Virus record (IMG/VR): IMGVR_UViG_3300035517_000267
Coordinates: 67,521 to 131,520 of that record
Length of the DNA: 64,000 nucleotides
Reading direction: 5' to 3' (one strand)
Source: a virus
Lineage: Duplodnaviria; Heunggongvirae; Uroviricota; Caudoviricetes
Under the pieces are notes generated by a model. It made no database searches and was not told the DNA's origin. It was given only the letters and a program-made list of their open reading frames with translations. The translations under genes were made by a program, and so were the position numbers. This document shows, piece after piece, positions 32,557 to 56,617 of the stretch (position 1 is its first letter; each line of letters begins with the position of its first letter).

Positions 32557-33116
32557 TTAATATACTCCTTTATATCTTCTATAATTTTTTCTATATGAAC
32601 AGGATAGCAATTATGACTATCCGTTTCAACGTGATAAGATAGAATATTCTGTTTAATTAGTTCGTATTTATCTTTTGTGTGCGAATGCCCGCATATATTT
32701 ATAACCTTAGCTTTTAGTGGTTTAAGTTCATCATAATTAGAAGTAATGGTAGGGAAATGAGAAAGATAAAGATGATACTTTTTATAGACTAGCATAGTAG
32801 ACCACCCAAGAATTTCTTCTACATTATTACAGCTTTCATACATGGCTAGTCGTTGCGAGGTATCATGGTTTCCGCAAATTATATGGAGTTTTCCATTCAT
32901 AGATTCAATTAGTTCTTTATTTGCGGCAAGTGCCTCTTCATTCCCTCCACCAAGACACAAATCTCCTAATACATACACATCATCTTCTGGAAGAACTAGA
33001 GAATTATGTCTTGTAATAATTGCTTCATTCATTTGTTGTATATTATCAAAACCTCGGGATTCCCAGATAAAAGGGCGATCGTGACTAAAATGCCAATCAG
33101 AGGTGAGCCATACCAT
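32553..33116 (-). CDS. calcineurin-like metallophosphoesterase (end-healing phosphatase candidate)
   Basis: SDWHFSH, LGDLC, GNHD and CGHSH metal-binding motifs. Confidence 0.7.
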   Translation of the reverse strand: MVWLTSDWHFSHDRPFIWESRGFDNIQQMNEAIITRHNSLVLPEDDVYVLGDLCLGGGNEEALAANKELIESMNGKLHIICGNHDTSQRLAMYESCNNVEEILGWSTMLVYKKYHLYLSHFPTITSNYDELKPLKAKVINICGHSHTKDKYELIKQNILSYHVETDSHNCYPVHIEKIIEDIKEYIK

Positions 33117-33118
33117 GC

Positions 33119-33604
33119 TTATTCACTTCCTTTTACTTCAATAATTTTATTATATTTATATTTTTCATATTTAGATGCAGGACAAAAATTTTGTTTCATT
33201 TTATACATTATTTTATCGGGTACTTTTTCTCGTCCTTTTCTTTTAGCATTACGCTCAAAACAAATGTTAAAGGGAGTTAAGAAATTAACTGCATATATCT
33301 CAACATCTTTAAGATTCAATTTATCAAGAACTTTATTGCGACTGTATTCATTAATATGAGTAGCATCAATATAAGTATTCTCATTGGTAATAATAGATTT
33401 ATTAATCTGACGAATGAACTCTTTAAAAACAGCATCTTCTTTAGAAAAATATTCTTCATCTTCATTTACCATGCTGAATCGAACAGCATCGCGAGAAACA
33501 CAATAGCCATTTTGTTTAGCTACCCAGCTGCTTTTACCCGATGCCGGAATCCCGCACAAAAGCCAAATCTTTTTCTGCTTCATCTTTATATACTCCGTCC
33601 GCAA
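33119..33604 (-). CDS. P-loop polynucleotide kinase-like protein
   Basis: LLCGIPASGKSSW Walker A; size and motifs resemble the kinase domains of bacterial Pnkp and T4 Pnk. Confidence 0.55.
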   Translation of the reverse strand: MRTEYIKMKQKKIWLLCGIPASGKSSWVAKQNGYCVSRDAVRFSMVNEDEEYFSKEDAVFKEFIRQINKSIITNENTYIDATHINEYSRNKVLDKLNLKDVEIYAVNFLTPFNICFERNAKRKGREKVPDKIMYKMKQNFCPASKYEKYKYNKIIEVKGSE

Positions 33605-33815: not shown

Positions 33816-33896
33816 TGTTCTTCTTCCTTTATTAACTTCTTCTCTTGACGGAAAAATTTTTATGAATTAAAATATTAATATAAATTAAATTTCTTC

Positions 33897-34214
33897 CTAA
33901 ACTCCTATATATTCAACAATAAACCAATTCATTATGTCCCAAAGACGATAACCATTCCAGTGGCACCATCCGTTGGTGCTATCAAGCTGTTCAAAATATC
34001 TTCCAGTTTTACGATCTTCAAAACGTAGCCACACATAATATTCCATTCCAGAGCCATCTTCATAATAAGCAGCTTGTGGACAATTTACTTGATGAATATA
34101 AAAACGCCCTTTCCACAAATTATCATTCTCAATGTTTTTATTAATTTTCTTAACATAAGAATTTATTTTGCGCTGATGTTTTTTTCTATTCCTTGAATAA
34201 ACCCAATTATCCAT
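33897..34214 (-). CDS. hypothetical protein
   Basis: 105-aa ORF, no recognisable motif. Confidence 0.4.
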   Translation of the reverse strand: MDNWVYSRNRKKHQRKINSYVKKINKNIENDNLWKGRFYIHQVNCPQAAYYEDGSGMEYYVWLRFEDRKTGRYFEQLDSTNGWCHWNGYRLWDIMNWFIVEYIGV

Positions 34215-34302: not shown

Positions 34303-35193
34303 TTATTCTTCAACATACCTTATATAGCAATCATAGCCTAAATTTGCAAGGTCTTCGGCAACTTTTTGCGCGTTCTCTTTTACTGAGAAAAATCCAACTT
34401 GAACCCTATAGCCCTTCTTCTCGTCATCATATGTAATGAAAGCAGATTCATACGAAAATCCATTAATACCAGATTTAAGACTTTTAATAACTGCAAGATA
34501 GCGCTGAGCATTTTCTTTTTTAGAAAAAAATCCAAGTTGACAGCGATAACCAATTTTTAGCTTTTTTGTCCAAACGGCACAAACAGTATCTACAGATCTT
34601 TCCCATCCGGCATCTGTTATTCTAATACTATCAACATAGGCTGCGACACTTCCGCCGCCATCCATGTTAAGAGCATATTGACAATCAGGAAACTGCTCCA
34701 AAATAACAGTTTGCACAGTTGAGAAAGAAGCTCCGTTACCTTCAATAGTAATGTTAAAAAGAGTATCAGCAGTCCAACCCCAAATATTACGATGTGCGGC
34801 GCCGCTTATTTCACTAGCAGTTTTAATAATGCACTTATTTCCATCTGCTATAAGAGTGGGATAAGAAGAAATATAATGTTTCCAAGCATGATCTGTTGCA
34901 GACCCATAAGCTATTTCTCCATCTGTTGTAATACCCCAACCATCTATATTAGTTGCATCGGAGCTATAGACAACTCCATTAGAAATAACATTAAAAATAC
35001 TATCTCCACTAGATGTGTTGAAGAAGCCTAAGTTTGTAAGAACATTAGGCTTAGTCTCATAAGTGTCCAGCATTTTATTAGGCGCAAGCTTCGGCTGAGT
35101 ACATATATCAAATGAGATATTAGTAATTTCCTTTTTGGGTATTTTAATTACCTGTATTTTCATTCCATTCTGAGTAAAAGATTCATAATTCAT
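34303..35193 (-). CDS. phosphodiester-glycosidase (NAGPA)-like domain protein with two C-terminal SPOR peptidoglycan-binding repeats
   Basis: ALNMDGGGS motif; two repeats of (C/R)QLGFFSKKENAQR... / RVQVGFFSVKENAQK... typical of SPOR domains. Confidence 0.55.
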   Translation of the reverse strand: MNYESFTQNGMKIQVIKIPKKEITNISFDICTQPKLAPNKMLDTYETKPNVLTNLGFFNTSSGDSIFNVISNGVVYSSDATNIDGWGITTDGEIAYGSATDHAWKHYISSYPTLIADGNKCIIKTASEISGAAHRNIWGWTADTLFNITIEGNGASFSTVQTVILEQFPDCQYALNMDGGGSVAAYVDSIRITDAGWERSVDTVCAVWTKKLKIGYRCQLGFFSKKENAQRYLAVIKSLKSGINGFSYESAFITYDDEKKGYRVQVGFFSVKENAQKVAEDLANLGYDCYIRYVEE

Positions 35194-36266
35194 GTGTTAA
35201 ATTCTCCTTCTTTCAAATGTAAAGTTTTTATAAAAGATGCTGTAGTCATTTTTTCAAAGTAGTCGTCTGCATGATCAAAAACATATAGCAAATAATGTGC
35301 TACTTCAGGAGGATAATAAGAGAGAACCTTAATTGCATAATCTTTTTTATTAAGGCAATAAGAACCCATTTCTACCTCTGCCCGCATACAAGCTCTTACA
35401 AGACGAGAGAGCCTATCTTTTATCATATCTATTTTTTCTTGATATTCAGGAGCATAAGTCAAGAATTCGTCCTCTTCACCTTGCCGCACTATTTCAACAA
35501 GAGTAGACAATGAAACAGCTCCGTTGGCTCTTGAATAATGCGCCTTTACATACGCAACAGATTTTACTTTTATACGATTGGTGCCATCGGACACCACAAA
35601 TCCTTCTTTTGTCCAAGGGAAAGTTGAAGCTTTATCTACAATTTCTTTAAGATTAGCAAAGCTGTAACTAGCTGGAGCTTCTATAGGAAGAGGATAATTG
35701 ACATACATTCCATTTTCCTTATTTCGTGCAGCTAAATAATAAATTTTTGTTTCGTCATAAGGAATCACTACACGATTATAGGGTGACACAAGCTCAAACA
35801 TATAGGTATATTTACAATCCAGCATTTGATAAAATTCATTCTTAGAAAAACCAAGGGCTTCCATAAAAAGGTCATAAAAAGTTTTATCAAAATTTCCTAC
35901 TTCTGCTTTTCTTGCATCAATAGTGCCATTGGTTGATATATGCCAACCGTCATGGTACCATACTTTTATCAAGCTTCCATCTATCTTCTCGGTAATCTCT
36001 ACATTATTCCAATTAACAGCTGCGGCATAAGGTTCTCCATAGTTGAAAAATTTATCAAAAGGACGACAAACTATATCCCAAGTGGGTTCATAAAATATAA
36101 TTCCTCGTGCTTCTCTAACGAGCGAATAGGCAAAATCAGAATCAGGCTGAGAATATTTAAAGAGTATATAATTATTATATCTACTAATTTTTAGATTATA
36201 AGGTGCATGAGTAAGCTCTTCTTCCCAATTTTCATGCGAAAGAATATAATTTTTCAATTCACTCAT
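35190..36266 (-). CDS. RNA ligase (Rnl-family nucleotidyltransferase)
   Basis: KxDG motif ITEKIDGSLIKVWY; the N-terminal region resembles T4 Rnl-type ligases. Confidence 0.6.
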   Translation of the reverse strand: MSELKNYILSHENWEEELTHAPYNLKISRYNNYILFKYSQPDSDFAYSLVREARGIIFYEPTWDIVCRPFDKFFNYGEPYAAAVNWNNVEITEKIDGSLIKVWYHDGWHISTNGTIDARKAEVGNFDKTFYDLFMEALGFSKNEFYQMLDCKYTYMFELVSPYNRVVIPYDETKIYYLAARNKENGMYVNYPLPIEAPASYSFANLKEIVDKASTFPWTKEGFVVSDGTNRIKVKSVAYVKAHYSRANGAVSLSTLVEIVRQGEEDEFLTYAPEYQEKIDMIKDRLSRLVRACMRAEVEMGSYCLNKKDYAIKVLSYYPPEVAHYLLYVFDHADDYFEKMTTASFIKTLHLKEGEFNT

Positions 36267-39258: not shown

Positions 39259-39417
39259 ATCTTACCTCCTAGGGTATGGCGGCGGGGGACGGTACTGACC
39301 CGTCTTCCAAGCTTTTAGAGAGCCTTGCATTACCTTTATGCTACCCCGCATTTTCTAATTCTATTATACAGGAAAAATTTCATAAAGTCAAAAAAAAGAG
39401 AGGGTTTATTCCCTCTC

Positions 39418-41769: not shown

Positions 41770-42936
41770 TTATGTAATACTGCTAATAGTCCCCCATGAC
41801 ACAGGAACCGCAGTCGAATCAATACCCAATAGATGATATTGAGAACTATATATAAAGTAAGCTATATCGCCAGCGTTGATTATTCCAGCAGTAATTGCTT
41901 TACCCTAATAATAAATAGATTTTGCGCCTTTATTATTAACATTTAATGTTGCACTTGCAGGAACATCATATGTAAATTTGACAGCTACAACGCCTCCAGT
42001 GGCTAAAGAATAGCTTGAAAGACTTGCGACTTTTGCCGCAGTAGCAGCAGCAGTAGAACAAGTAGCATAACCTTGACCTAAAGAAGCATTAGAGTATGTA
42101 CTATTAACATCACCTGTTACCCACCAGCCAGTATAACTAGTTCCACTTATTGTTAAACTAGAAAAGTAAGTTAACGTAATCAAATAGTTGACAGGATAAT
42201 GAGTAGTTAATCTTGTAGTACCATTGCGATAACAATTAATAGCACCAGTGGTACTTCCATCTGCTAAAGTTAATTCCAAAGTAACATTAGTGCTACTGGG
42301 ACTAGTATAAGGAAGCCAATAGTTAATTGTTAAGCCATCATAAAGAGCTTTTACACTAGAAAGAACTCCAGTCCAAGCTGCTGTAGAAGCTGTTTGTGTA
42401 CCTATAACGTAACGATTTTCTTGTACATCAATGGAAACATTAGAAGAGCCATCAAATGAAGCAGAACCTGAAAATCCATTATCTAAACTTATTGTGCGGG
42501 CGGTGGCAAGTTTATCAATACCACTCCATGTGCCATCACTTTTTAGATAATTGGAAGTTTGATTCTTGGTGGGTGCAGGCACTAAACCTCTGGTTCCCGC
42601 AGAAGAAGAGGTCGCTCCAGTGAAAGTTTCTACATTATTCTGAACTACCGTCCAGTCAGAAGCTTTGTATGAGGATGAATAATCTGAAATACAAATTATC
42701 ATATCTCCATTTTCCACTGTACCTACACTTGATATAGTAAAGGCGGCTGAGGCTTTGTAAGTCCAGCCTATTTTATAATTGGTTAAACCAGTAATTCCGG
42801 CAGCACTAGAAACTGTTCCCTTAAAGATTAAACTAGATGCAAGAGTCGTCTCAACTGCAGTAAGGCGATCTCTTGCATCCTGATCTTTAATGTCGTAAGT
42901 GGTACTGCCGAGTTTAATCTTAGAAATGTCAGCCAC
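41770..42936 (-). CDS. fibre protein paralog (conserved N-terminal anchor, Ser/Thr-rich shaft); one in-frame TAG at 41905-41907 extends it to the TAA at about 41770
   Basis: N-terminal MADISKIKLGSTTYDIKD matches the next gene's MADLLSKIKIGTTTYDIKD. After the TAG the frame continues for 44 codons (GKAITAGIINAGDIAYFIY...) to a TAA followed by a rho-independent terminator. Confidence 0.55.
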
Positions 42937-42961
42937 TTACTTACACCTTCTTAAAACTTAA

Positions 42962-44224
42962 TTACGAAACAGAAACGCTCTTGGACGAAGTGGTAAGAGT
43001 CGGGGTAATCGTTGCCTTAGTACCGGTAAGAGTGCTGGAAGCGGAAGTTGCTTTATCATACTTACCAGAGACAGAGACGGAACCAGAAGTACCGGAGAAA
43101 GTTGCAGAAACAGTGTCACTGTCGCCAGTGAAAGTAGCTGCAAAACGATCGCCAGTAAACTCAGGAGCACTAGCAGTGGCAGATTTAATGCCAGTTGCTG
43201 CAGTAATCGCAGTACCAAGAGTCGGCAGAGTGCCAGCAGAGAAGGTACCATCGGTGAAAGAACCAGCCTTGAAACCAGTAGAGGTTAATGCGTTAGCAGT
43301 AGAAGCAGTGCCAATAACTAAGGTTTCATCACTAACCGTAGCAGTTACACCAGAAGTTGCAAAAGCACTCTTGGCTTCAGTCACAGACGGAGCCGTCCAA
43401 GAAGCTGCTGTGTAGCTGGGAAGTGTACCAACAGAAGTCACATTAGGAACGGAAGTGGTATTCACACTAACACTAATCGTAGGAGCGCTAACACTACCAG
43501 AAATAGCAACGCCATCAGTCGTGCTAGTAGTCTTGGCAATAGAGACCGTGCCAGTCGGAGTTACAGTACCACTAATAGTACCAGCCGGAGTGAAACTACC
43601 GGTAGAAGTTATGCTAGTTGCGGTATTGGCAATAGACGTTGTAACAGAACCTGCCGGAGTATAATCAACGCCAGTAATACCAGTAACGTAATCACTTAAA
43701 GTACCAGAAGCAGTATCCTTATAAGCAAGGGCTTTGAGACCAAGAGCAGTCTTAAGAGCGTCCGCAGAAATATTCTCACTCAGAGCAAGACCGGCAACTG
43801 TGCGGGTAGTGGGAACATAGCCATCAAGACCAAGGTTAGTGTCACCAATCTTCTCGAAAGAATAGGTGTAAGAACCTTCAGTACCGCTACGCAGGGTGAT
43901 GTACTCAGCGTAAACGTCATTGCCAGTGGCACCAGAAATAGCAACAAGATAAATTCTATACATCGTATCAGCAGAAGCCGTGGGAAGAGTAGTAACGACC
44001 TCATACTCAAACTGATTAATCTTGCCAACTGCAGAATCAACATAACTCTTGACTGCTGCAGTAGTAGCAACGCCAGTAGCAGAATCAGTAACAGTAGCAT
44101 CTGCAGCCTTGTAAGCAGCAGTACCAAGCTTACCAATTTCAGTTTCTAAGTTAGAACGAGCAGTTGCGTCCTTTATGTCATAAGTTGTAGTACCAATTTT
44201 AATTTTAGATAATAAATCAGCCAT
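42962..44224 (-). CDS. fibre protein (Ala/Thr/Ser/Gly-rich); GC-rich gene
   Basis: Same N-terminal 20-aa motif as the gene at 41770-42936. About 50% GC against a genome background near 33%. Confidence 0.55.
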   Translation of the reverse strand: MADLLSKIKIGTTTYDIKDATARSNLETEIGKLGTAAYKAADATVTDSATGVATTAAVKSYVDSAVGKINQFEYEVVTTLPTASADTMYRIYLVAISGATGNDVYAEYITLRSGTEGSYTYSFEKIGDTNLGLDGYVPTTRTVAGLALSENISADALKTALGLKALAYKDTASGTLSDYVTGITGVDYTPAGSVTTSIANTATSITSTGSFTPAGTISGTVTPTGTVSIAKTTSTTDGVAISGSVSAPTISVSVNTTSVPNVTSVGTLPSYTAASWTAPSVTEAKSAFATSGVTATVSDETLVIGTASTANALTSTGFKAGSFTDGTFSAGTLPTLGTAITAATGIKSATASAPEFTGDRFAATFTGDSDTVSATFSGTSGSVSVSGKYDKATSASSTLTGTKATITPTLTTSSKSVSVS

Positions 44225-44243
44225 GTTTTAATTCCTCCAAAAT

Positions 44244-44738
44244 TTAAGAAATAATTAATTCTTCATTTTCTGCATCAAGAGAAACTTCTACCTTTTTCTT
44301 TAAAGCAGAAGAGATGGCATATTGTGTCATAGTACCATCCTCATTATTGCCGGTAGTTGTATATAATTTCATTATACCTGCCACTTCAGCAGTTGCCGCA
44401 GGAACAGCAGAAATATAATTACTACCATTATAATGATAAATTTCTCCATCAATTGCATCAATGTAGAGTTTATTTGTAGAACCTTGAATTATATTCAAAT
44501 GTTCTGCTTCTTTATAAAAAGCTCCCTCATAAAAGTAAGCTCTTATAAGTAAATTATCAATGAAATCAAGATCGCCAAAGGTAGAAACGCCATCGCCGCA
44601 AACTGCACGAAGCCCATCTGCGGAGGTATCTACCAAACATACTTCTCCATTTGCTGGAATAAAAGTATCTGCAATTTTCGCATAATTGAAATCATTGTCG
44701 CGTCTTAATCGGAGGATGGCATTAATTTGTTGTCCCAT
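44244..44738 (-). CDS. tail-fibre-repeat-like protein
   Basis: GDGVSTFGDLDFIDN, a phage-tail-fibre-repeat-like motif. Confidence 0.4.
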   Translation of the reverse strand: MGQQINAILRLRRDNDFNYAKIADTFIPANGEVCLVDTSADGLRAVCGDGVSTFGDLDFIDNLLIRAYFYEGAFYKEAEHLNIIQGSTNKLYIDAIDGEIYHYNGSNYISAVPAATAEVAGIMKLYTTTGNNEDGTMTQYAISSALKKKVEVSLDAENEELIIS

Positions 44739-44753
44739 TTAAATTCCTCCTAG

Positions 44754-45119
44754 TTAGACTAGATCTGTGGCAGAGCCACCATATAAAACTAAAGTGTCAA
44801 CCCATTTAAGATTGTTATCCTCGCCCTTTTGCAGGATTTGACCCGGTTCCGCGTCAGTAAAACCAGATATTAAAATACTGCCATCATCTGCTTTAACCAA
44901 ATTCCCATTATCTGTTATTTTAAAGTTACCTTCAAAATAATCTAAGTCCTTCCAAGCAGTGGCGCCATCACCAACCTTAAATTGGTTTCCACCTTCATCA
45001 AAGCAAATTTGTCCGGCAAGAGGAATAAAACTATCTTCAAAAGAACCTCTTAAAGTATCTCTATCTTTAATAAGTTCCCATAATGTTTTTAATCCTTCTT
45101 GATTAAGAAATTTAGACAT
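44754..45119 (-). CDS. tail-fibre-repeat-like protein
   Basis: N-terminal LNQEGLKTLWELIK is paralogous to the gene at 45137-45946; contains GDGATAWKDLDYFEG. Confidence 0.4.
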   Translation of the reverse strand: MSKFLNQEGLKTLWELIKDRDTLRGSFEDSFIPLAGQICFDEGGNQFKVGDGATAWKDLDYFEGNFKITDNGNLVKADDGSILISGFTDAEPGQILQKGEDNNLKWVDTLVLYGGSATDLV

Positions 45120-45136
45120 TTATTTGTCCTCCTTTC

Positions 45137-45946
45137 TTATACACAAATTTCGTTGATTTCTTCCTCAGTTAAAGCCTCGGGAATCTCGCTCTTAATAGCT
45201 TCGATATCCTTCTTTACAGCGACTTCATGGTCAGGGTCATCTGCAACATAATCTTCCGCAGCCTTATCCTCTGCGTTATGATAAAACATACCCTTTTGAT
45301 ACACATTTAAGCGGCTGCCTATCCAGTTGCCATTAACCTCTTTATCTGCATAAATCTGTGCGACCATGCCATCTGCGCCGCCATCATTCACACCAACAAA
45401 AGATTCAGTACCATCGGTATGGACATACTTAGCGCCGCCGCCATCACCTTCATTGAAGATAAGACCTTCACCATTAGTACCCTTGACGCTTTGAGTGGTT
45501 TTCTTGGCAACTTCAGTATCAACATACTCTATAGTAGCATAGGCACTCAGGTCTATAATACCAGAGAGATTATCCCAGGAATCACCAGTCCAAACAACAT
45601 TATCTCCAGCCTTGATACCATTTTCATCATCTGCGGCGACCACATTATAGACATCGCCAACCGTTAAGTCATCAGTAGGCAGTTCCGCATAGGTATCAAC
45701 ACTGCCCTTAAAAGTGAAAACTTTAGTGATTTCCGCGGTTGCTTCATCAATTTGAGATTGAAGAGCTTCAATAGTATCCTTTAATTCTTCCTTGGATTCA
45801 TAATTACCAAGAATTTCAACAAGTTCGGTAGAAGTCTTATAGTCTTTAAGAGCGGTAGAAATGTCTTCGGAAGTAGCCGCATATTCTTTAATCTTAGCCC
45901 ATAAAAGCTTTAAGCCTTCTTGATCTAAAATCTTAGCCATTGTCAA
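45137..45946 (-). CDS. structural protein (fibre or decoration paralog)
   Basis: N-terminal LDQEGLKLLWAKIK is paralogous to the gene at 44754-45119. Confidence 0.4.
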   Translation of the reverse strand: MTMAKILDQEGLKLLWAKIKEYAATSEDISTALKDYKTSTELVEILGNYESKEELKDTIEALQSQIDEATAEITKVFTFKGSVDTYAELPTDDLTVGDVYNVVAADDENGIKAGDNVVWTGDSWDNLSGIIDLSAYATIEYVDTEVAKKTTQSVKGTNGEGLIFNEGDGGGAKYVHTDGTESFVGVNDGGADGMVAQIYADKEVNGNWIGSRLNVYQKGMFYHNAEDKAAEDYVADDPDHEVAVKKDIEAIKSEIPEALTEEEINEICV

Positions 45947-45979
45947 TTACTCCTTTTATATAAGAATTGAATTAACTTC

Positions 45980-46309
45980 CTATTCAGTCATAGGAATATC
46001 TTTATCAACCCACTCAAGAGTTCCAGTAGAACCCTTTGAAGGGATTTGACCAACGGAAGCAGTGTCGAAGCCATATAATTCAGCTTTAGACCCTGATAAA
46101 ACAAGGCTTTTACCATCAACAGAGAGAGTGGCTTCTCCACCGAAATACTGTAAATTATTCCACGCAGTTTTGCCATTGCCAATTTTGAGTTTACCTGTAT
46201 CTAATTCATAGCCAGGCTCAGCTTCGGCAAGAATAGGATTTACATTTTTCCAGTCTGCGGCATTACCACGCTTAAATTTAAAAGTAGTAGTATAAACAGT
46301 TGTAGCCAT
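45980..46309 (-). CDS. tail-fibre-repeat-like protein
   Basis: GNGKTAWNNLQYFGG motif. Confidence 0.4.
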   Translation of the reverse strand: MATTVYTTTFKFKRGNAADWKNVNPILAEAEPGYELDTGKLKIGNGKTAWNNLQYFGGEATLSVDGKSLVLSGSKAELYGFDTASVGQIPSKGSTGTLEWVDKDIPMTE

Positions 46310-47088: not shown

Positions 47089-47269
47089 TGGTAGTCGGTA
47101 CGGGATTCGAACCCGTGACTTCAGCGTTGGAACTAAAAATAAGATTTGAACTTACATCTTTGACCACTCTTCGTCTGAATAAAATCTTATTTCAAATTCA
47201 AAAAGTCAATATTTTTCTTTAAACTATTTTAGCGAAAGGCTGATGACTTAACCTCTTGTCGAACCGACC
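47089..47269 (-). tRNA. tRNA-Glu (UUC) gene interrupted in the anticodon loop by a 106-nt tRNA-like insert (47128-47233)
   Basis: 5' half GGTCGGTTCGACAAGAGGTTAAGTCATCAGC-CTTTC, and 3' half AC-GCTGAAGTCACGGGTTCGAATCCCGTACCGACTACCA. Acceptor (7 bp), D arm, anticodon stem TCAGC/GCTGA, a 4-nt variable loop, canonical T loop TTCGAAT and CCA are all present. The predicted spliced loop CTTTCAC reads UUC. Confidence 0.55.
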
Positions 47270-47687
47270 ATATATAGCTTTTGTTTTAAAAGGAAGCTAT
47301 AAGAAACCTTTGTGATAAGAACCAGAGACTTATCACCCTCACATTTACCCCTGCGATTTTCCCTAGGACTGGGGGATCTTTCCTTTCAGCTTTTTACCCA
47401 GAACTCGAAAGAAAGATATAAATACAAACTGGCTATATTGTTTATAGACTACTAGAAGTCTTAAGATTTTTTGGCTAAATCTTATAACCGTCGCCTTAAG
47501 TAGGTCAAAGCTACAAAAAACCTGTTTTAAAGAGTTTTCTTTCTCCATTAGAGTGAATGACACTATAGATAATTCCCTACAATCTAGATATAATAATTTC
47601 TTTTAATCGAGAAAGAATTAATAAGAAAGAATAACTACAATATTGTAAGTACGTTCCCATTGTTTAAATCCTAGAACGCCAAGGATT

Positions 47688-47774
47688 TGGTGCGAGCGGC
47701 GGGACTCGAACCCGCACGTCCTTGTGGACACGAGATTTTAAGTCTCGGGTGTCTACCACTTCCACCACGCTCGC
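47688..47774 (-). tRNA. tRNA-Leu (UAA), type II
   Basis: GCGAGCGTGGTGGAAGTGGTAGACACCCGAGACTTAAAATCTCGTGTCCACAAGGACGTGCGGGTTCGAGTCCCGCCGCTCGCACCA; anticodon loop CTTAAAA; long variable arm; CCA encoded. Confidence 0.8.
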
Positions 47775-48387
47775 TTATATTTTATGAAAGACCCCTTCGG
47801 GTTGCTATCTGTTCAATCGTAGCTATATTCAGTCAATAGGGAGACAAGAGTGTGCCTAGAGGAGCTACCTCTAAACAGCTTGCCCCAGCTTAGAGCCAAG
47901 TCCCATGGGAGATTGGTTACTCCCAACTTTCACCCACCATTCACATCTTGTATCTGTTAAAACCATTAACATAAAAATTTGATGTAATCTTGGCAGACCA
48001 TTTGGGCTACTCGTACTGTGACCTTATCTTATACACCGATTTCTCGGCTTCAACTGCCAAGTTCCTTAGTGACATTCCAAGGTTTGCAAAAACTGTCACA
48101 TTTTTACCTAACTTGGATTCTTCTCCACAGGAGCGTCTATTGCGGAACCGATAAGACCATACTTTTAACTGCGATTGTGATAGTGCCTTTCTTCCTACAG
48201 AGCTAAAGTTCTTTAGCCTCAACCCAACCTCACGAATTGAGCCGATACAAGATTGCTAGGGTATCCTCTAGTACCTTGCTACTTACGGAAGAAGCCTCAG
48301 CACAATGGCGTTTGTCTACACTGAGTTCTTTCATAATATTTTGTCATTCTTATTTATGTATAGATGGAGAATAACAAAACCACCTTT

Positions 48388-48461
48388 GGCAGTCCCTACT
48401 CGTGACGATCGAGTACCCTCTGATTCAAAGTCAGATGTGCAGTCCGCTACACCAAGGGACT
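48388..48461 (-). tRNA. tRNA-Gln (UUG)
   Basis: AGTCCCTTGGTGTAGCGGACTGCACATCTGACTTTGAATCAGAGGGTACTCGATCGTCACGAGTAGGGACTGCCA. Perfect 7-bp acceptor, anticodon loop CTTTGAA, CCA encoded; the T loop ATCGTCA is non-canonical. Confidence 0.6.
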
Positions 48462-48519: not shown

Positions 48520-48650
48520 CATATATATATTATACTCTTTTTTTATTATTTTTTCAAATTTTCTTTATTTCGTTCAAAAAGATTTTTTCTTTCTTTCTTT
48601 CCTTACCTTGTATATATATTATACTCTTTTTTTATTATTTTTTCAAATAA
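48520..48650 (-). repeat. two direct repeats of about 37 bp (tatatattatactctttttttattattttttcaaat) upstream of the late block; late-promoter candidates
   Basis: Copies at about 48527 and 48611. On the minus strand they read GAGTATAATATATATA, close to the -10 region of the conserved early promoter motif. Confidence 0.4.
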
Positions 48651-48917
48651 AAAATAGGCTGGTTTAAAGTCACAGCCTAGGACTTTTGCACATACATTTA
48701 AGGAATAATAATAGTACAAAAACTATTATACTTCTGAAAAAAACTCTAAAAATATTATATTCTTTTTTTTTTGTTACGGCAAATTATTCTTCTTCGCTAG
48801 TCTTTTCTTCGTTGAGAGCAGCAGTAAGCTCTTTAGCCCCGTCCGCAATATCTTGGAAGATTTTCTTTAAACTTTCTTGGCTCTTTTTACCCAAGATAGA
48901 TAACTTCTCTAAATCTG

Positions 48918-51053
48918 TCATTCAAAATCTTCTCCTTCCAATTCTTCAATTCCACCTTCTTCTTCCATAGATTCTTTATCAGTTATATATATCATAATAG
49001 GTTCATCTATGTCATAGAAAGTTAATGTATCATTTTCATAATCTATAGAATAATGTTCCTCTGAAAGTTGCTCCTTAAGAGGTAAGCCTATCTCATACCA
49101 TATATAAGGTAACTTTCCAATTAAAGGACTAGCTTTTAAGAACTCAAAATCACATTCACTTAACTTATTTCCTTGATAAATAAAAGAATTATTTTCCATT
49201 TTTTGGATACCAGTGTCTCCATTTTCATCTAAGAAATATTTTCCATCATCAAGCTCAAATATTACGCCTAATATTCCACCAACCATTTTATCAAGTGTAT
49301 AATAAACAGGAATAAGTTTAAGATTAACTGAATTGCTCATTTCACTTAAGCGATAAATAGAATCATCATATTCTTTTCTAGCAAATGACGTTGTAGTTAA
49401 TGCTCCAAAAATTTCAACAAGCTAAACCACAATATTAAAACGAGATTCTCCATTTATGGTTGTATACATTACATAATTACCATCGCCAATATTAGAATTA
49501 AACTCAATCTCATTTGTTTCTTCATTTTGAGTCATGTTTATATAGATTTCTTGGACTTCTGGTCTTGGACACTCCTAATAAGTAGCTATATACATACCAT
49601 TTTTTCTAGTAGAAAGTTTACAATATCCTTTATAAATATTCCATTCTGCGTGGACTTCATCATCTAAAAGCCAAGGTGCTACCCATATAGTATTACCTCT
49701 ATAAACATTACTAGGACACGTTGTAATAGAATTTTCTTCTTCGCCTTCTATTATTGAACCTTCTTCGCCAAAATCAAAAACTAATCCATTTTGACAGCCA
49801 TATCTGCCAGAAACACACAAAAATTCATTTTCATATTCAAATATTTTTGCTTTTGCTTCATTGTCATATTCATCTTCATTTTCTTCGTTTCTAATAGTTA
49901 ATGCAGCATTGTAAATCTTTAAGGGTCTACTCTGAGTAGCTTTTTCATTATCAGTAACTGCATATACTTCAAAATAAGCGCCTTCTGTATACAAAGCTGC
50001 TAAAACATACAAAAGAATAATTCCAATAGTAGAATTATCAGAATCTTTATAATCAAAAAGTTTGTCTATAGACTCAACTAATGAAACTTCTCCCATAACA
50101 AATGAAGTCAGTTGGTTAGGTTCATAAGTACCATTTAATCCACCAAAAATAGCATAAATGGCTTGATAAACTGTATTAACAATAAAATTTATTAAACCTT
50201 CATTTCCATTGTTAAGGTCATTAAAATCTAAACTATTAACGACAGTAACTACAGTATTAATAATACCATTCCAAGTGGTATTGCAAATAGGAAATAATTG
50301 GTTAATGAATTCCGCAAGAGAAGGAACATCTTTCAATTGTTTAATAGCAGCAATAAGATTATCAATCAGTTCTAATCCATCTTTTACTAAAGGAGCATAC
50401 CAAACTTCATCTGGGTCTTGTTCCGCAAGTTCTTCTAATATGTCCTTAACGGCATTACTTTCCCAAGCTTCTTCAATATCATCTATTAAAGTAACGATTT
50501 GAGAAACGTCAATTTCTGGAAAATATCTTAAACAAATGTCTGATATAACATCTGCGGGAACCCTGATATGTAGAGTATACTTAGGATACCTAATCTTAGC
50601 CTTAGCTCCTGCTATTATCATCTAGTTGAAGTAAGTAAAGAAGTCAGGGGAAAATACATCTTTCACCTAACTAACGAAACTGACTATTTCCTTATAAAGA
50701 TAAGAGTACGCTAAATCATCTATATCAGTATCACTTGCATCTTCTCCAGCTTCTTCTTCTACCTTCTTTTCAATATCGTTAATCATTTGCTTGTAATTAG
50801 CTATAGTTTTTAATACATCCTAAAATTTAATATTATTATCAAAATAACTATGATTTTCAATAGTAATACTAGGATTTGTTCCAACTCCAAGATCGTCAAC
50901 ATCATCCATTACAAACTTAAAGGTAGGCGTAGGATTAACATCATGCAAACTAAAAACAGCATCTTCTCCCGTATCAGTGGGTAGTTTAACCGAATCTATT
51001 TCATTATAAGTAATAGTGTTACCCAATGAGTTTTTTAAACTAATATTAACCAT
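48918..51053 (-). CDS. late structural protein of about 711 codons read through five in-frame TAG codons; function unknown
   Basis: ORFs 50820-51053, 49575-50621 and 48918-49340 share one frame and are separated only by TAG codons, near 50820, 50667, 50622, 49575 and 49422. There is one start with AAAGGAG 9 nt upstream of the ATG at 51053, and one terminal TGA at 48918. Confidence 0.65.
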
Positions 51054-51055
51054 TA

Positions 51056-52093
51056 TTATTCATCTCCTTTAAGTGTAATCGTAGAATCTTCTTGCTCAAG
51101 ATTGTCGGCAGAAGAAATGTTATAAGTAGTTCCATCAACATTTACATTTGATATATTGTATTCAAACTCACATACTATTTCACCATTTTCAAGAGTAAAA
51201 GGAAATCTACATCTAAAATAGGAAATATCCTGTAAAGTATTTGCAGTAGAATCGCTAAATCTAGTAAAATAATTGCTTTTATCTATATCACTTAATACTA
51301 CTGCGTTTTGTAAAGTGTCAATAACTTGCTTCCAAGCAGTTTCTTCGTCTTGGAGAGCAGAAAACTAAACGTCTTGTGGAACTTTAACTCCACAAAAATA
51401 AACACCATAATTTATAATTATATTATTTAAAAAATCTTTTTCTGCCAAAATTAGTTTTCCTAAATTGTTTAATAAATCTGGGATGACAGAATTTTCAGCC
51501 CTTGCCAATATTCCTAAATATTCGTTATAGGAAATATTGTCAGTTTGGTTAGCCATAACAGTTTCGTTATAACTGTCTATATTTAGCCTTGTATAAATGG
51601 TTATTTTATCATAACTAGGGGAAATAAAGGCGGCTCCCGCACGTCCCCAAGTATTAAACTATGAAGTACGAGAAACATAATCATCAGGAATTGGTGCTAC
51701 TACTATATCTCCTGTTGCATAAGTACCTTGTTTTATTGCTATTTGAGAAGAGAGAGAGGGAGTTATTATCTCTCCCTCTTCTACCACAAGCTACCTTTTT
51801 GATTCTTGTTTGCCCGAAGTCGCGGTAATTAAACCAGTATCACTAACTGTAATAACAGGTTCAGGGCAAAGAACATTAACAGTAGCTTGTTTAAAACCAA
51901 CTAAACCTTCGCTAGGAGTTAAAGTATAAGTGCCATTATCCGTATATGTTTCTTTTACAGAATCATTTAATAATTCTTCTGAATAATAAGGAGCGAAGGT
52001 TTGCTGAGAGCTATCGGTTGGGACTAAAACTTCTTTGATTCCCTCGAAAGAAACACCTTCACCCGATTTATTTAATAAATATACTTGTGGCAT
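51056..52093 (-). CDS. late protein(s) with three in-frame TAG codons and an apparent +1 frame change near 51720
   Basis: MPQVYLL... ends at a TAG (51791) and stays open for 35 codons. An overlapping +1 frame (…YATGDIVVAPIPDDYVSRTS[TAG]FNTWGRAG...) runs into MANQTDN... (51556), crosses another TAG at 51365, and ends at the TAA at about 51056. A frameshift, a sequencing indel, or two overlapping genes are all possible. Confidence 0.35.
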
Positions 52094-52165
52094 TTTAACC
52101 CAGCCTTTCAGGATTTAGTTTCTGTTTGCACCTTTATTTCATCTTCAAAGGAAATATCAACTATT

Positions 52166-52759
52166 TTAGTCATCAGTAAAATCTCCTTCTATATCTTCTT
52201 CAAAATTAATAGTAAAACTTAAATCATTAGCGGGAAATCTTAATTGCATAGCATGAGCCGTTGTAATAGAATTGGCAAGCTAGTTAGCATATATTAAAGT
52301 AGTTCCTTGATATAAAGCTATAGCATCTATAACGCCCCAGCCACCTTGATCCACAACGTCGTCTGTAGAATTATTTATATTGTCAGCAGAACCATCATCA
52401 ATCTCAGGGAAAAGAAGGTCATAGGCATTTATAACGGTTGCCTCTGAACCAGTATGTTTTAAAACTAAATAATTTCCAGATTCATAACTTGATTTAAGGT
52501 TCTTAGCTGTGGTTCCAGTGCCTTCAACGTCATCACTGTAAACTAAAATTTGTCTTTTTACATATTGTCTTGTATCAGAGACTTTATCTATCTTGTCTTG
52601 ATGTTCTTCGGGAAGGTGACTCTTGATAGAATCAACGCTTATTTTTATAAATTTATTTTCATCTTCGGCATCTTCATCCCAGTAACCTAATTCAATATAA
52701 AAAGTTCCGTTACTAAAAATTTTATCCCAAAGCGTCTCTTTACCTTTGGTAGTTATCAT
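52166..52759 (-). CDS. late protein with one in-frame TAG
   Basis: Strong ribosome-binding site AAGGAGGAAGAATAATTATG; TAG at 52280-52282; the frame continues for 37 codons to a TAA. Confidence 0.55.
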
Positions 52760-52761
52760 AA

Positions 52762-53208
52762 TTATTCTTCCTCCTTAGTTACTTCTTGCAATTTAATTTT
52801 AATGCCTTTTTTAGGAGAGCTAGAATAAGCATTTAGTTTTATTAAATGATTTTGTCCTAAAGAAACAGGGCTATTAAATTTAATAGCATACATTGCAACT
52901 CCATCTGCTTTATTAGTAGAATTTTCTCCATTTTCTAAGATATATCTACCATCATAAAACATTAAACCATCTACTGCTACATTCCCGGAACTTTTATTTT
53001 CGTTAAATAAAACCGAGCCAGTAGTTTTCCATTCAAGGTTAGATGTATCAAGTGAGCAAGATATTGACTTATTTCTCGTTGTTCCATTATCATCCAGGCT
53101 GGTAATTCTGTTCATACCGCTTTCTTCACCCTAGCCAAGAGCAATATACTAAGTACCATTGGAAAATAAAGAACTCATAATTAAGCCTAAAAAGGTTTTT
53201 GTGACCAT
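52762..53208 (-). CDS. late protein with two in-frame TAG codons near the N-terminus
   Basis: AAGGAGGA ribosome-binding site 7 nt upstream of the ATG at 53206-53208. Sequence MVTKTFLGLIMSSLFSNGT[TAG]YIALG[TAG]GEESGMNRITS...; terminal TAA. Confidence 0.55.
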
Positions 53209-53226
53209 GTTTAAATCCTCCTTGGA

Positions 53227-55480
53227 TTATCTTATTGCTGTAGCGCTTTCAGTAGCGCTATAATCATATATTTGTTTTATTTTTAAAGCATAGTCAGACT
53301 ATACCGGATCTATCCAATCAATGTCTAGCTTTAAAACTCCATCATTCGCATCATAGGAATATACTTGATAGATTTTTAAAGTATCATCTATTTGTACTGG
53401 ATCGATCCAATCAGACGGCTCAGTCTACTCTACTTCTACTTCAATATCATTAACAAATGTTAAAGAATTTTGGACATTTACTATGCTAGTTTGCGGATAT
53501 ATGCACACACAATTTGCATCATTAATAAAATTTATAGAAGAGCTTAAAGCCTCACTATAATCTTTTTGCTCTGCAATATATAAAAGACAATTATTTGAAA
53601 AGTTTAAAACTAAAGATGAATCCTATTTATAATCTTGTTGACTTACTGTATGTAACCTACAATTATTTATAAATTGTGTTTTTGAATCTAAGATTGAACT
53701 ACAATCTTTCCAACTAGCTATATATAAATTATAATTATTTAAGAAGTTTAAGTCTGATTTGAGATTTTCTTTTTGTTCTTGATTACTTATAAGCTATAAT
53801 CTGCGGACGCCGGTAGTATGTAGCGACATATCTTGTTTTGAAGATTGTTCATTCTCGTATATTAGCTTCGCCTAAGCGTTTGCCGCAAACTCCAAGCTAC
53901 TTTCTCCATTATATGTACAATCTACTGTTACAATAGAAAAATCTAAAATAGTAAGAAAATAAGAGTTCAAGAATTGTGTACAAGCTTTACTAGCCAAGTC
54001 CGCACAATTATCAGAAACCAAAGTAGCTCCCAATGAAAGAGTTGAATTTATCGAATTTATTAAATTATTCTAATTATCACTCTTATATACATCTGCTATT
54101 CTATAATTTTTTTGAACTTGAACATTATTTTCAAAACTATCTTTTAAATCTTCTTCTGCTATTAATTGCGCATTAGCTTTTTTAACAATCTAAGCTGTAT
54201 TTTGCAAACTTGCTTCATTTGTTTTAGGAGAAACTAATGCCAATCTTAATCCTAAACTGGTAAAACCTAAAGATTCTTTAAGGTTCGTTGTAGAGATCTC
54301 TCCTGGCATAACAAGAGTTGCATCAAAGTCTTTTTGAACCTTTAACTTTGGAGATTCCAAATTAGCATCAAGGTACCTAGGCTCTATATTAGTGCCACTA
54401 TAATCTTTTTTAATCTAAAAATTTGAGGTTGTATCAAAAAATTTTAAAAAGTCAACTTGACGTATGTCAAGTAGTTTCGCAGACCTTCGTGTATAGAAAT
54501 TATAGGTATCTTTAATGCTCGAAGGAAACGAATGTCTAGTACAATTTAAGGCAAGACTTTTTCTTTTTATTTTAAAAGTATAAGTGTCATTTGATTCTGG
54601 GACAAGGTTTTCTCTGTCTACATTAACCGCAAAATTTTTCCGATGTAATTTATAAGTGTAAGAGTCATTTGATTTTGGAACAAGATTTTCTCTAGATAAA
54701 TCAATAGCTTTATCAAATCTTTTCAAATAATAGGCATAACTATCTGTAAGAGAAAGACCTTTTCTAGTAATATCTTGTGCCCTTGTGCGCCTTCGACCTA
54801 GCAGCGTCCGCACATTTTTATCCTTTAGAAAAAGTCCTTTTCTTTCCAAATTTTTAGCTTTAGTTTTTCGTAAAATCTTAAAACTATCTTTAGTTTTAGA
54901 ATTACTGTTAAATAATTCCAAATTACTTGCATTGCCATCGCGTTTTATAACAAAAGAAAATTTAGCTTTATTTGAGCCTTCTTGATTAGCAAGATTTATT
55001 GCAGTAAAACTTCTTTTAAACTAAAAATTGTCTTGTATATCAGCATTAATATCTCCATCTATACAAACGGTTGCATTTAAGCTATAGATAGGAATAACCG
55101 TATTAGATGTATTAATACTGTTATTATATATTAATAAATCTTCTGCGCGAGTTGAATTCTAAGTCTAAGCAAATGAAAAAAACTCTTCATCGAATGTTTT
55201 TCCTGGGATAATATGAACTATATTATAAGTATTTTGCGGACGCACGCTTACTGATTGTGACACATCTTGGTCTATAGAGCATTTCGCCATACTCTATAGC
55301 CTTATGTCATTAATAGAAATAATATTAGTTTTTTCATCTGCTTTTGTCGGCAGCTAAGTTGTACAATGTAATCGTACATTCATACTAGCCGCAACTGAAT
55401 TATCTCCTATTAATTCTGGCTATTCGTTCTAGATAGTTACGAATGTAAGTCCAGCCGCATTATCAAACTAGGTTGTAGCT
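53227..55480 (-). CDS. large TAG-rich late protein (tail-fibre or tail-like, with DWIDPV and ENLVPxSNDxYTxK repeats); start not resolved
   Basis: ORF 54415-54921 ends in TAG and shares a frame with the TAA at 53227. The 1.3 kb between has no ORF of 60 codons or more in any frame under the standard code, and in-frame TAGs were confirmed at 53299 and 53425. Confidence 0.45.
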
Positions 55481-55558
55481 TTATAGTTTCCTTTTAATAC
55501 AATTGATTTTTCGTTTAGAGGAAGTAATTGATAATATAATAATAAATATTTTTGTTTA

Positions 55559-56215
55559 TTATCCATTTGAGACATCCCTACTTACGCAAGACCATTTGCC
55601 TTCTCCCAACGCTATTCCAACTATTTCATGAAAAGCATTTTGCGTAGTAGCGGCTAGATGACCCACTAGTCCAATTGTATTTTCTTCTAATCCTCCTATA
55701 GCAATAGTAATATAGCTAGATTGAGGTATTGTATAAGATATATAAAACATATCCCCCAGCGTTTTCGCAGGAGGAATTGTAAAGGCAGTTATATCAGTTA
55801 AAGTGCCTAATATATATACATTATTTGCTTTAATAATTCCATCAGATGGCAATGAAGTGTTTACAGTCATGCCAGGCGGAATTGTAGTGTCAGTATATTC
55901 TTTCGCTTGTTTTAAAACATTATTGATTGAGCCTTCTGTATCCTCAGAACCATTTAAAGTATTAATATTCTAAATTATATCTGCGGCGACCTCGGTATGT
56001 GAATCGATCCAGCTTGATACTTCTTTCAATGTATCAAGCGTTTCGGGCGCACCATCAACCACCGCCGCAATTTTTTCATTTACTAATGCTTCTATATCAT
56101 CTGTTGATATATGCTCGGATACAATTTCTTTTATTTGTTCAACAGCTTCTTCTCTTGGTAGGAAATCTTTCGCATCAATGTATTTTTTAGCAAGAGTATA
56201 AGTTGTAAAATCCAT
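55559..56215 (-). CDS. late protein read through one TAG (ORFs 55970-56215 and 55559-55870 fused)
   Basis: TAG at 55970-55972; 33 in-frame codons link to the MTVNTS... ORF; terminal TAA. Confidence 0.55.
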
Positions 56216-56221
56216 GAATTA

Positions 56222-56407
56222 TTACACCTCCACCCACTCTTTGTCACCATTTAGCATAAACAGTTTATGAGTAGAAATCACAAAAGCGGTACTTCCCATA
56301 GGAATATCTGTGGGTAGATTCATTATATCACTATCTGAGTCACAAACATATTCTAACGCATTATAGGTAGCACGCCCGCCGACAGAAGTTCGATTAAACA
56401 TTGACAT
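56222..56407 (-). CDS. small structural protein, paralog of the gene at 46324-46641
   Basis: Shared CDSDSDI..LP...GSTA motif. Confidence 0.4.
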   Translation of the reverse strand: MSMFNRTSVGGRATYNALEYVCDSDSDIMNLPTDIPMGSTAFVISTHKLFMLNGDKEWVEV

Positions 56408-56617
56408 TCTCCTTTCTAGCGAGTTTTCCTTATTAGTCTTAAAAATGGTTTTCTAAGGATTTTCCAAATTAGACCAAAAATAGAAAAAGGTGGTTTTTTC
56501 AAACCACCTTTACTCGTCTCAAAAGTCTCTCCCATTTGCGGATGAGGGCTGCATTTCGCACAGGGTCACGCTCTTTAAGAATGTGTATACGATTTTCAAT
56601 ACTCAGTTCAGTATGTT

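Follow-up and report, generated by a model that had tools for sequence, protein, structure and literature searches.

Evidence that TAG is read as glutamine in a tail-module gene block of a large phage with a putative suppressor tRNA

We analysed a 64,000-nucleotide stretch (positions 67,521 to 131,520) of the virus record IMGVR_UViG_3300035517_000267, assigned to Caudoviricetes. This stretch, hereafter the window, belongs to a large phage and has nearly all of its genes on the minus strand. A preliminary description, made from the letters alone, had proposed that the TAG codon is read as sense across a block of late genes. With TAG as a sense codon, the minus strand of 48918-56215 (7.3 kb) resolves into six back-to-back genes of 711, 345, 197, 148, 782 and 218 codons. 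Together they have 28 in-frame TAGs, 16 of which are in the 782-codon gene, but no in-frame TAA or TGA and no frameshift. The block is presumably late, a label taken from its tail-fibre-like gene content. The genes, with their TAGs given by codon and by low coordinate, are:

48918-51053, minus strand: 711-codon gene, part of the tail module; five TAGs (codons 78, 129, 144, 493 and 544; 50820, 50667, 50622, 49575 and 49422); ends in TGA
51056-52093, minus strand: 345-codon gene; three TAGs (codons 101, 145 and 243; 51791, 51659 and 51365); ends in TAA
52166-52759, minus strand: 197-codon gene; one TAG (codon 160; 52280); ends in TAA; 44% identical to 6529-7104 of L003, a diverged relative described below
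52762-53208, minus strand: 148-codon gene; two TAGs (codons 20 and 26; 53149 and 53131); ends in TAA
53227-55575, minus strand: 782-codon orphan gene; 16 TAGs; internal repeats; ends in TAA
55559-56215, minus strand: 218-codon gene with a tail-fibre-type N-terminal region; one TAG (codon 82; 55970); ends in TAA

Under the standard code (code 11), the start-to-stop open reading frames (ORFs) on the minus strand of 48.9-56.2 kb are fragments of 41-348 amino acids, and the standard-code gene calls of JGI for this region are likewise fragments (32-168 amino acids). Stop-to-stop ORFs of at least 100 amino acids cover a fraction of 0.50-0.58 of 48-56 kb with code 11 and 0.96-0.99 when TAG is sense, whereas making TGA sense leaves the coverage unchanged. 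TAG is the sole interrupting stop. Given the base composition of the block, the chance of meeting no TAA or TGA is ~7e-23 over 782 codons and ~7e-21 over 711 codons. The 1.3-kb gap reported at 53115-54415, said to lack any ORF of 60 codons or more, is real: the largest code-11 ORFs in 53116-54414 are 53, 47 and 56 amino acids, with none of at least 60 amino acids in any frame. The 782-codon gene, with its 16 in-frame TAGs, accounts for the gap. Every TAG coordinate in the preliminary description was correct, but the list held only 14 of the 28 sites; it overlooked 51659 and gave the 782-codon gene four TAGs instead of 16. Each merged gene does end in one terminal TAA or TGA as had been stated, and ribosome-binding sites of the AAGGAG/AGGAGG type precede four of them, but the sites are weaker for 51056-52093 and 53227-55575.

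Four independent tests agree in indicating that the merged frames are translated. In one, codon usage was learned from the TAG-free window genes and used to score the segments of at least 30 codons between TAGs. The merged frame (frame 0) scored best in all 24 of 24 such segments across the six genes, including 10 of 10 in the 782-codon gene. Another drew on a diverged relative of the module, found on three contigs (L003, L004 and L005; JGI samples 3300035502/01 and 3300036769). L003 aligns full-length with five of the six block proteins, at 64, 54, 44, 40 and 44% identity, straight over every TAG, and it carries in-frame TAGs of its own. We also compared near-identical strains (L095, L096, L097, L098, L001 and L002), which are 98.4-100% identical to the window phage. 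Against L095 (98.4% identity), the ratio of nonsynonymous to synonymous polymorphism (pN/pS) is 0.18 when the merged frame is used, as opposed to 1.14-1.24 for the two shifted ones. Among single genes it is 0.24 in the 782-codon gene (1.0-1.6 out of frame), 0.30 in the 711-codon gene and 0.03 in the 148-codon gene. Finally, the same TAGs are present in at least six independent assemblies from different samples, so they are not sequencing or assembly errors. Every test that had been proposed to refute TAG reassignment, and that was run, came out in its favour: gene calling with code 15 (TAG as glutamine) lengthens the ORFs as the coverage shows, homology to L003 is kept over every TAG junction, and the interruptions are by TAG alone, without the TAA, TGA and frameshifts of a decaying region.

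The block proteins have few recognizable relatives. The 711-codon product matches L003 8245-10404 at 64% identity over 702 amino acids, with all five TAGs spanned, and has a marginal match to a tape-measure family in PHROG. Residues 78-145 of the 345-amino acid protein form an unnamed repeat domain of ~70 amino acids that is common to 343 representative proteins, some of them huge and adhesin-like with Big_9, cadherin-like or BspA-LRR domains. The 782-codon gene and L003 share only the first ~27 residues, and an IMG/VR scan and a protein search revealed no homologue of the 782-amino acid protein. The 218-amino acid protein is 44% identical to L003 3976-4623 and matches tail-fibre families in PHROG at 1e-7 to 4e-3; it is the only one of the six with tail-fibre matches there. 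Pfam gave no match for any of the six proteins, and the protein searches returned one relative for the 711-amino acid protein and only itself for the 345-amino acid protein. Single-sequence AlphaFold models of two proteins, P0002 and P0001, were unusable (mean predicted local distance difference test scores of 30.5 and 40.8).

The repeat domain of the 345-amino acid protein provides the most direct view of the amino acid inserted at TAG. In an alignment of 331 domain instances, the column of codon 101, which is TAG in both the window and L003, is glutamine in 211 of 237 sequences (89%). The column of Gln-117, encoded by CAA in the window and by TAG in L003, is glutamine in 250 of 263 (95%). 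The third TAG in the domain, codon 145, falls in a variable column. Where only one of the window and L003 has TAG, the partner is glutamine at 5 of 14 positions (P = 8e-5), or 6 of 15 (P = 7e-6) including the N-terminus of the 782-amino acid protein, and glutamine makes up only ~2.5% of the residues in the proteins aligned to L003. BLOSUM sums over the TAG partners are highest for glutamine (21), followed by glutamate (14), and are strongly negative for leucine (-24) and tryptophan (-38). Three positions have retained TAG on both sides, in proteins that are 54-64% identical. In the 148-codon gene, TAG codon 20 stands opposite CAG in L003, and codon 26 (53131-53133) is CAG in strain L095, a TAG/CAG polymorphism between strains. 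With TAG counted together with CAA and CAG, glutamine makes up 4.0% of the block, compared with 3.4-3.6% elsewhere. The 345-amino acid product also exists as a public Logan protein (P0002) with glutamine at all three TAGs, and the Logan gene calls for the contig are the merged ones. The alignments, together with the features of a phage-encoded tRNA, indicate that TAG is glutamine (code 15) and not leucine (code 16), two options between which the preliminary description had not chosen.

This transfer RNA (tRNA), which had escaped the preliminary description, maps as follows:

39277-39350, minus strand: tRNA(CUA), a suppressor proposed to decode TAG (ARAGORN; Rfam tRNA model, 41.4 bits)
39419-39396 and 39391-39363, minus strand: terminator-like hairpin, then TTGACT-17-TATAAT, 12 nt before the suppressor tRNA; consensus matches only

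Its minimum-energy fold is a canonical cloverleaf. The D-stem has 4 bp and its 7-nt loop contains GG; the anticodon stem has 5 bp and the loop CUCUAAA; the variable loop is 4 nt long, the T-stem has 5 bp, and the CCA end is encoded. It has a U1.C72 mismatch, G73 and U35, and it is identical in strains L095 and L096. By its match to the consensus, it appears to have a sigma-70-like promoter of its own. The "Pyl" label given by ARAGORN derives from the anticodon alone. A pyrrolysine tRNA (tRNA-Pyl) would have a 6-bp anticodon stem, a 3-nt variable loop, a shrunken D-loop and a one-base linker, and would be accompanied by pylS/pylBCD genes; the architecture here is ordinary, and thus this is not a tRNA-Pyl. 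Because the variable loop is short, it is not of the bacterial leucine, serine or tyrosine type either. The combination of U1.C72 mismatch, G73 and U35 is one favoured by glutaminyl-tRNA synthetase (GlnRS). Classical amber suppressors include supE of E. coli, a tRNA-Gln with anticodon CUA, and amber suppressors are known to be mischarged by GlnRS. The phage tRNA resembles supE-type suppressors in its CUA anticodon retaining U35, its weak or absent 1:72 pair and its G73, features that favour charging with glutamine. Unlike supE, it is found within a genome-wide code change, where TAG terminates no gene, and is not a leaky suppressor in a standard-code genome. Phage-encoded suppressor tRNA(CUA) genes accompany ~40% of published code-15 cases. 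Neither blastn of this tRNA against 50,697 phage records nor exact-pattern scans for its anticodon arm gave a match. Its T-loop (GUCAGUA) and that of a tRNA-Gln(UUG) in the window (AUCGUCA) depart from UUCRANN, in contrast to the ordinary T-loops of the phage tRNA-Leu and tRNA-Ser. With its U1.C72 mismatch and non-standard T-loop, the suppressor could serve as a natural template for amber-suppression tools.

The recoding is pronounced in the block, as had been proposed, but is not confined to it. In-frame TAG occurs at 11.7 per 1000 codons in the block and 1.2 per 1000 codons in 1-47 kb (Fisher p = 4e-13), the early-versus-late comparison that the preliminary description had suggested, whereas off-frame TAG is found at 19-27 per 1000 throughout. 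The replication genes are nearly free of in-frame TAG. In all ~83 greedily called genes a TAA or TGA can be reached by read-through, and TAG is essentially never a terminator. The only possible TAG terminators are in 33885-34214 and 45956-46309 (minus strand), where TAG precedes TAA by 3 and 7 codons; reading it as glutamine adds short tails to these proteins. Outside the block, genuine in-frame TAGs occur in four further genes, listed here with the endolysin:

28467-28781, minus strand: holin-like ORF of 104 codons; two hydrophobic segments predicted to span the membrane; TAGs at codons 9 and 92
28778-29440, minus strand: endolysin with Amidase_2 and SLH domains (Pfam; PHROG endolysin family, 5e-49); TAG-free
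29540-30799, minus strand: PIN-PhoH fusion gene; TAG is codon 124 (30428-30430), close to where the PIN domain ends
12653-13333, minus strand: GIY-YIG homing endonuclease between DnaB-type helicase pieces; TAG at codon 86 (13076-13078), within the catalytic domain
41770-42702, minus strand: tail-fibre-like gene (PHROG long-tail-fibre family, 2.7e-9); TAG at codon 266 (41905-41907)

The ATG of the holin-like ORF overlaps the endolysin stop (ATGA). From codon 9 to the end of its second hydrophobic segment there is no ATG, GTG or TTG; with TAG at codon 9 and no later usable start, the protein could not be made in a standard-code cell. Its position and hydrophobic segments suggest that it is likely a holin, although it has no match in PHROG. 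In the PIN-PhoH protein, PIN_4 spans residues 21-123 (profile positions 17-121 of 132) and PhoH residues 218-413 in the same frame. The GIY-YIG domain of the endonuclease comprises residues 1-92, and its alignment with I-TevI crosses the TAG into the NGYNI motif. TAG codon 266 of the tail-fibre-like gene is unchanged in strains L095-L097. Recoded codons are therefore enriched in tail-fibre and lysis-related genes, and the replication genes are compatible with the standard code.

Two further regions bear on this distribution. A 308-codon ORF at 19755-20681 (minus strand) has an N-terminal hydrophobic segment and coiled coil, a C-terminal GIY-YIG domain and TAG at codon 56, and represents either one recoded gene or two. 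A second tail-fibre-type module at 41770-46309 (minus strand; guanine-cytosine (GC) content 38-43%) is 2.6 kb from the TAG-rich block and has one clear in-frame TAG. It includes tail-fibre matches in PHROG at 41770-42702 and 44754-45119, Mtd_N at 45956-46309 (JGI record) and a 420-amino acid gene at 42962-44224.

The block coincides with a segment shared with the second phage type, represented by L003 and L004:

48784-56418, minus strand: extent of the shared cassette (7.6 kb); blastn identity of 67-74% to L003/L004, ending sharply on both sides

This is the only part of the window that is similar to the second phage type, and the flanks are unrelated. Its GC content of 31-32% is below that of the window (~35%) and of the neighbouring tail module at 41.7-46.3 kb (38-43%). 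In the window the cassette is situated between small early-type ORFs and a cluster of tRNA and ROOL RNA genes; in L003 its neighbours are additional recoded tail genes on one side and, on the other, TAG-free genes, one of them for a Thg1-like enzyme. L003 has 28 TAGs in tail ORFs and none in 7 kb of flanking genes. Both phage types were found in the same samples. Exchange of modules among recoded phages may thus account for some of the TAG clustering. Because otherwise unrelated, co-sampled phages share only 48784-56418, and both copies are TAG-rich, one could go further and see the block as a portable host-range cassette whose TAGs are a compatibility lock. It would be expressible only by carriers of tRNA(CUA), and recoding would steer how tail-fibre modules are exchanged within a guild of recoded phages that occur together. 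We consider this extension rather improbable. Expression could also be ordered in steps or by thresholds according to how many TAGs a gene has (1 to 16), and the 782-amino acid protein would then be made only at near-complete suppression.

In the second phage type (L003 10648-11454 and L004 2808-6100), the cassette is followed by TAG-free genes. One encodes the Thg1-like protein, of the family of 3'-5' polymerases acting on tRNA 5' ends, and another an 811-amino acid protein with a major-vault-protein shoulder domain; neither has a homologue in the window. Since the window suppressor has a mismatch at 1:72, the presence of a Thg1-like enzyme beside a recoded module is intriguing, though any connection is speculative.

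The 1-30 kb region of the window encodes replication proteins, including a PolIII-alpha/YorL-type polymerase, a Dda-like helicase, RecJ, a primase, a DnaB-type helicase, an NAD ligase and two topoisomerase II subunits. The polymerase is closest (37-38% identity) to those of SPbeta-like and Enterococcus phages, and the endolysin relatives are mostly in genomes of Oscillospiraceae and other Clostridia. We infer that this is probably a large virulent-type phage of standard-code Clostridia. The flanks beyond the window comprise nucleotide-metabolism genes on the left (L086) and small early-type ORFs on the right (L092). No terminase, capsid, release-factor or synthetase gene was found in these flanks (~7 kb left, ~10 kb right), and there is no terminase in the window either. 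Megablast of 44-60 kb against the 50,697 phage records gave no match, IMG/VR scans with the 711-, 782- and 432-amino acid proteins found no relative, and a metagenome scan with the 711/719-amino acid alignment yielded 600 pattern matches, none of them confirmed.

Stop-codon-recoded phages have been described since 2014 and were surveyed in depth in 2021-2022. The preliminary description had likened the recoding to that of crAss-like and Lak phages, but with its SPbeta/Enterococcus-like polymerase and its Clostridia-type endolysin with SLH domain, this phage belongs to neither group. It shares with the code-15 members of these groups (Crassvirales among them) the same reassignment and late-gene bias, and differs in lineage and in its probable host; crAss-like and Lak phages have Bacteroidota hosts. 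Metaproteomics has proven that TAG is glutamine in crAss-like phages (PMC9523058). A good match is found in the gut phages of Borges et al. (bioRxiv 10.1101/2021.08.26.457843; Nat Microbiol 2022), which are recoded, have standard-code hosts and include a large Firmicutes-infecting "Agate" type; a recoded intron endonuclease and a recoded lysis-cassette membrane protein were reported from such large phages (bioRxiv 10.1101/2021.08.26.457843). The window phage resembles the Agate type in reading TAG as glutamine, in its phage suppressor tRNA, low GC content, standard-code replication genes and separate recoded structural and lysis modules, including the intron-associated homing endonuclease and the lysis-cassette membrane protein, and in its probable Firmicutes hosts of the cattle/pig-gut type. 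The Agate clade is defined by terminase phylogeny, and the window has no terminase. Unlike the phages of Borges et al., the endolysin here and the second tail-fibre module, apart from its one clear in-frame TAG, are TAG-free, and no RF2 gene was seen. The 136-kb human-gut phages of phAss-1 (proposed Phassvirus) have TAG in 41 ORFs and three suppressor tRNAs (PMC10607447). Like the window phage they are large, encode suppressor tRNAs and have in-frame TAGs in ORFs typical of phages, but only one suppressor tRNA was seen here, and no similarity was detected in a phage collection expected to hold phAss-1. Across the reference phages and IMG/VR contigs, the searches gave neither a nucleotide match nor a close protein match.

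The phage is thus a further example of the well-documented code-15 phages, adding a case and leaving current understanding as it is. It is a clean case outside the crAss-like and Lak groups, probably infecting Clostridia, in which a swappable host-range module can be viewed alongside the lysis cassette and the decoder tRNA, and the several near-identical strains and the diverged cassette provide comparison material. In a standard-code annotation the tail-fibre cassette, a functional homing endonuclease and the probable holin would be overlooked, and the contig should be annotated with code 15.

As a whole explanation, we consider it highly probable that this large phage uses code 15 with a phage-supplied tRNA(CUA), and that its use of TAG would delay the tail-fibre and lysis proteins. 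Only TAA and TGA terminate translation, and TAG is a glutamine codon whose proposed decoder is the tRNA at 39277-39350. The analysis establishes the in-frame TAGs and their uneven distribution, the translation of the merged frames, glutamine as the meaning of TAG and the presence of the tRNA; the charging enzyme, the competition with release factor, the timing and any regulatory purpose are inferred. A host glutamine-charging enzyme would probably charge this tRNA, and is a candidate because the U1.C72 mismatch, G73 and U35 fit the preference of GlnRS. On entry to a standard-code cell, release factor 1 (RF1) would cut the TAG-bearing genes short, and full-length products would appear only after the suppressor tRNA had accumulated and outcompeted RF1. 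In this way TAG would delay or lock the translation of tail-fibre and lysis functions.

Several points weigh against this explanation. The identity of the amino acid relies on alignments and tRNA features, and in the comparison with the diverged relative 9 of the 15 positions paired with TAG have a residue other than glutamine. Non-glutamine partners are, however, expected at 40-64% identity, since ordinary glutamines are only 46% conserved there. At 90% suppression per site a gene with 16 TAGs yields ~18% full-length product, and at 50% almost none. For a useful yield, the 782-codon gene needs ~90% suppression or more at each site, so that suppression would have to become nearly complete, yet no helper factor was seen, which hints at help from outside the window; among ~50 window ORFs scanned, none encodes a release factor, an aminoacyl-tRNA synthetase or an RF1 inhibitor. 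The ordinary host-type promoter-like sequence indicates that the suppressor tRNA may be expressed early, which would weaken a sharp late switch. The endolysin is TAG-free, as is the neighbouring tail-fibre module apart from codon 266 of 41770-42702, and hence the recoding does not extend over all late functions. With its low GC content and sharply defined ends, the cassette gives reason to attribute some of the TAG distribution to its history, namely import of a module, and not to regulation.

These last observations lead to an alternative that accepts the code change but denies the clustering of TAG any regulatory role. Once a suppressor is present and TAG is no terminator, changes from CAA or CAG to TAG would be nearly neutral, and the block would have been imported from a more heavily recoded phage. 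The similarity to the second phage type ends exactly at 48784 and 56418, the cassette has a GC content below its surroundings, and its L003 counterpart is equally TAG-rich. The TAG/CAG swap between near-identical strains behaves as synonymous, and the near absence of TAG from the endolysin and the neighbouring tail module also fits. On the other hand, the replication genes have ~10 times fewer in-frame TAGs than the block at equal off-frame frequency, the other TAG-containing genes belong to classes preferentially recoded elsewhere (the lysis-cassette membrane protein and the intron endonuclease), and three TAGs have been kept as TAG at 54-64% protein identity. We therefore find a purely neutral origin of the clustering unlikely, though it deserves weight. 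A host that itself reads TAG as sense, matched by its phage, is scarcely credible: in such a host the early genes would have no reason to avoid TAG (1.2 versus 11.7 per 1000 codons), the phage has its own tRNA(CUA), and the endolysin relatives are in ordinary Clostridia genomes. We know of no bacterial lineage in which TAG is glutamine. Borges et al. (bioRxiv 10.1101/2021.08.26.457843) likewise report standard-code hosts for their phages.

It is very unlikely that TAG encodes leucine (code 16), pyrrolysine, glutamate or tryptophan. For such readings one could cite the "Pyl" label of ARAGORN, the second place of glutamate among the partners (BLOSUM sum 14; 2 of 14 partners) and G73, which also fits glutamate and tryptophan tRNAs. 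Against them, the informative columns are 89% and 95% glutamine, TAG alternates with CAG at one strain site, and the sums for leucine and tryptophan are negative (-24 and -38). Leucine is further rejected by its frequency in the conserved column of codon 101 (2 of 237, <1%) and by the 4-nt variable loop, which bacterial leucine, serine and tyrosine tRNAs do not have. As for pyrrolysine, the ordinary D-arm, two-base linker and 5-bp anticodon stem set the tRNA apart from tRNA-Pyl; 28 TAGs in 7 kb are far too dense, and no pyl genes were found among the window ORFs scanned. That the block is a decaying pseudogene region, or an artefact of assembly or sequencing, agrees with its fragmentation by standard-code gene callers. 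There is one type of stop and no frameshift, pN/pS is 0.18, the same TAGs recur in at least six independent assemblies, and three are common to a relative 54-64% identical. The strain and relative comparisons refute this reading, and its probability is negligible.

A cluster of tRNA and ROOL RNA genes begins ~460 nt downstream of the last gene of the cassette:

48387-48461, minus strand: tRNA-Gln(UUG), a standard glutamine decoder, first of the tRNA-Gln/ROOL/tRNA-Leu cluster, just downstream of the cassette
47772-48349, minus strand: full-length ROOL RNA (Rfam RF03087, 322 bits), between tRNA-Gln(UUG) and tRNA-Leu(UAA)
47688-47774, minus strand: tRNA-Leu(UAA), its 5' end abutting the 3' end of ROOL

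Two repeated TTGAAA-17-TATAAT promoter-like sites (48529-48646) are located upstream of the cluster. ROOL adjoining phage tRNA islands is a known context (PMC12286853). The ~420 nt between tRNA-Leu and the next tRNA (47270-47690, minus strand) have no ORF and no Rfam match at E <= 1, and may be another structured RNA.

That next gene, at 47090-47268 (minus strand), is a tRNA nested in a tRNA-Glu(UUC)-like gene. The outer anticodon loop (CUUUC|AC) is split by a 113-nt insert that is itself tRNA-like (47131-47233; Rfam tRNA model, 40.5 bits; 23% GC), with its own CCA and an insert of ~36 nt in its own anticodon loop. ARAGORN detects neither the outer nor the inner tRNA, and exact-pattern scans for the two parts found nothing. 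A group I intron was rejected as an explanation for the insert, which is too short and has no Rfam intron match. Strain L097 (98-99% identical) has an uninterrupted, different tRNA-Glu(UUC) at the same slot (3932-4006), whereas the interrupted allele is identical in the five other strains.

Insertions of homing endonucleases divide several essential genes. Two halves of the PolIII-alpha polymerase (3825-5294 and 546-2552, minus strand) enclose a GIY-YIG ORF at 2725-3633, and pieces of the DnaB-type helicase (13530-14249 and 12025-12720, minus strand) flank the TAG-containing GIY-YIG ORF. Just beyond the window (L086 13945-17114), NrdD is split by GIY-YIG and NUMOD ORFs. A LAGLIDADG ORF is present at 15919-16677 (minus strand).

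The minus strand also encodes a tRNA-repair-type set, consisting of an Rnl1-like RNA ligase (35190-36266), an AAA_33 kinase-like protein (33119-33583) and a calcineurin-like phosphoesterase (32553-33116). This set is possibly relevant to the phage tRNAs, including the interrupted tRNA-Glu. A protein with NAGPA and SPOR domains is encoded at 34303-35193 on the same strand.

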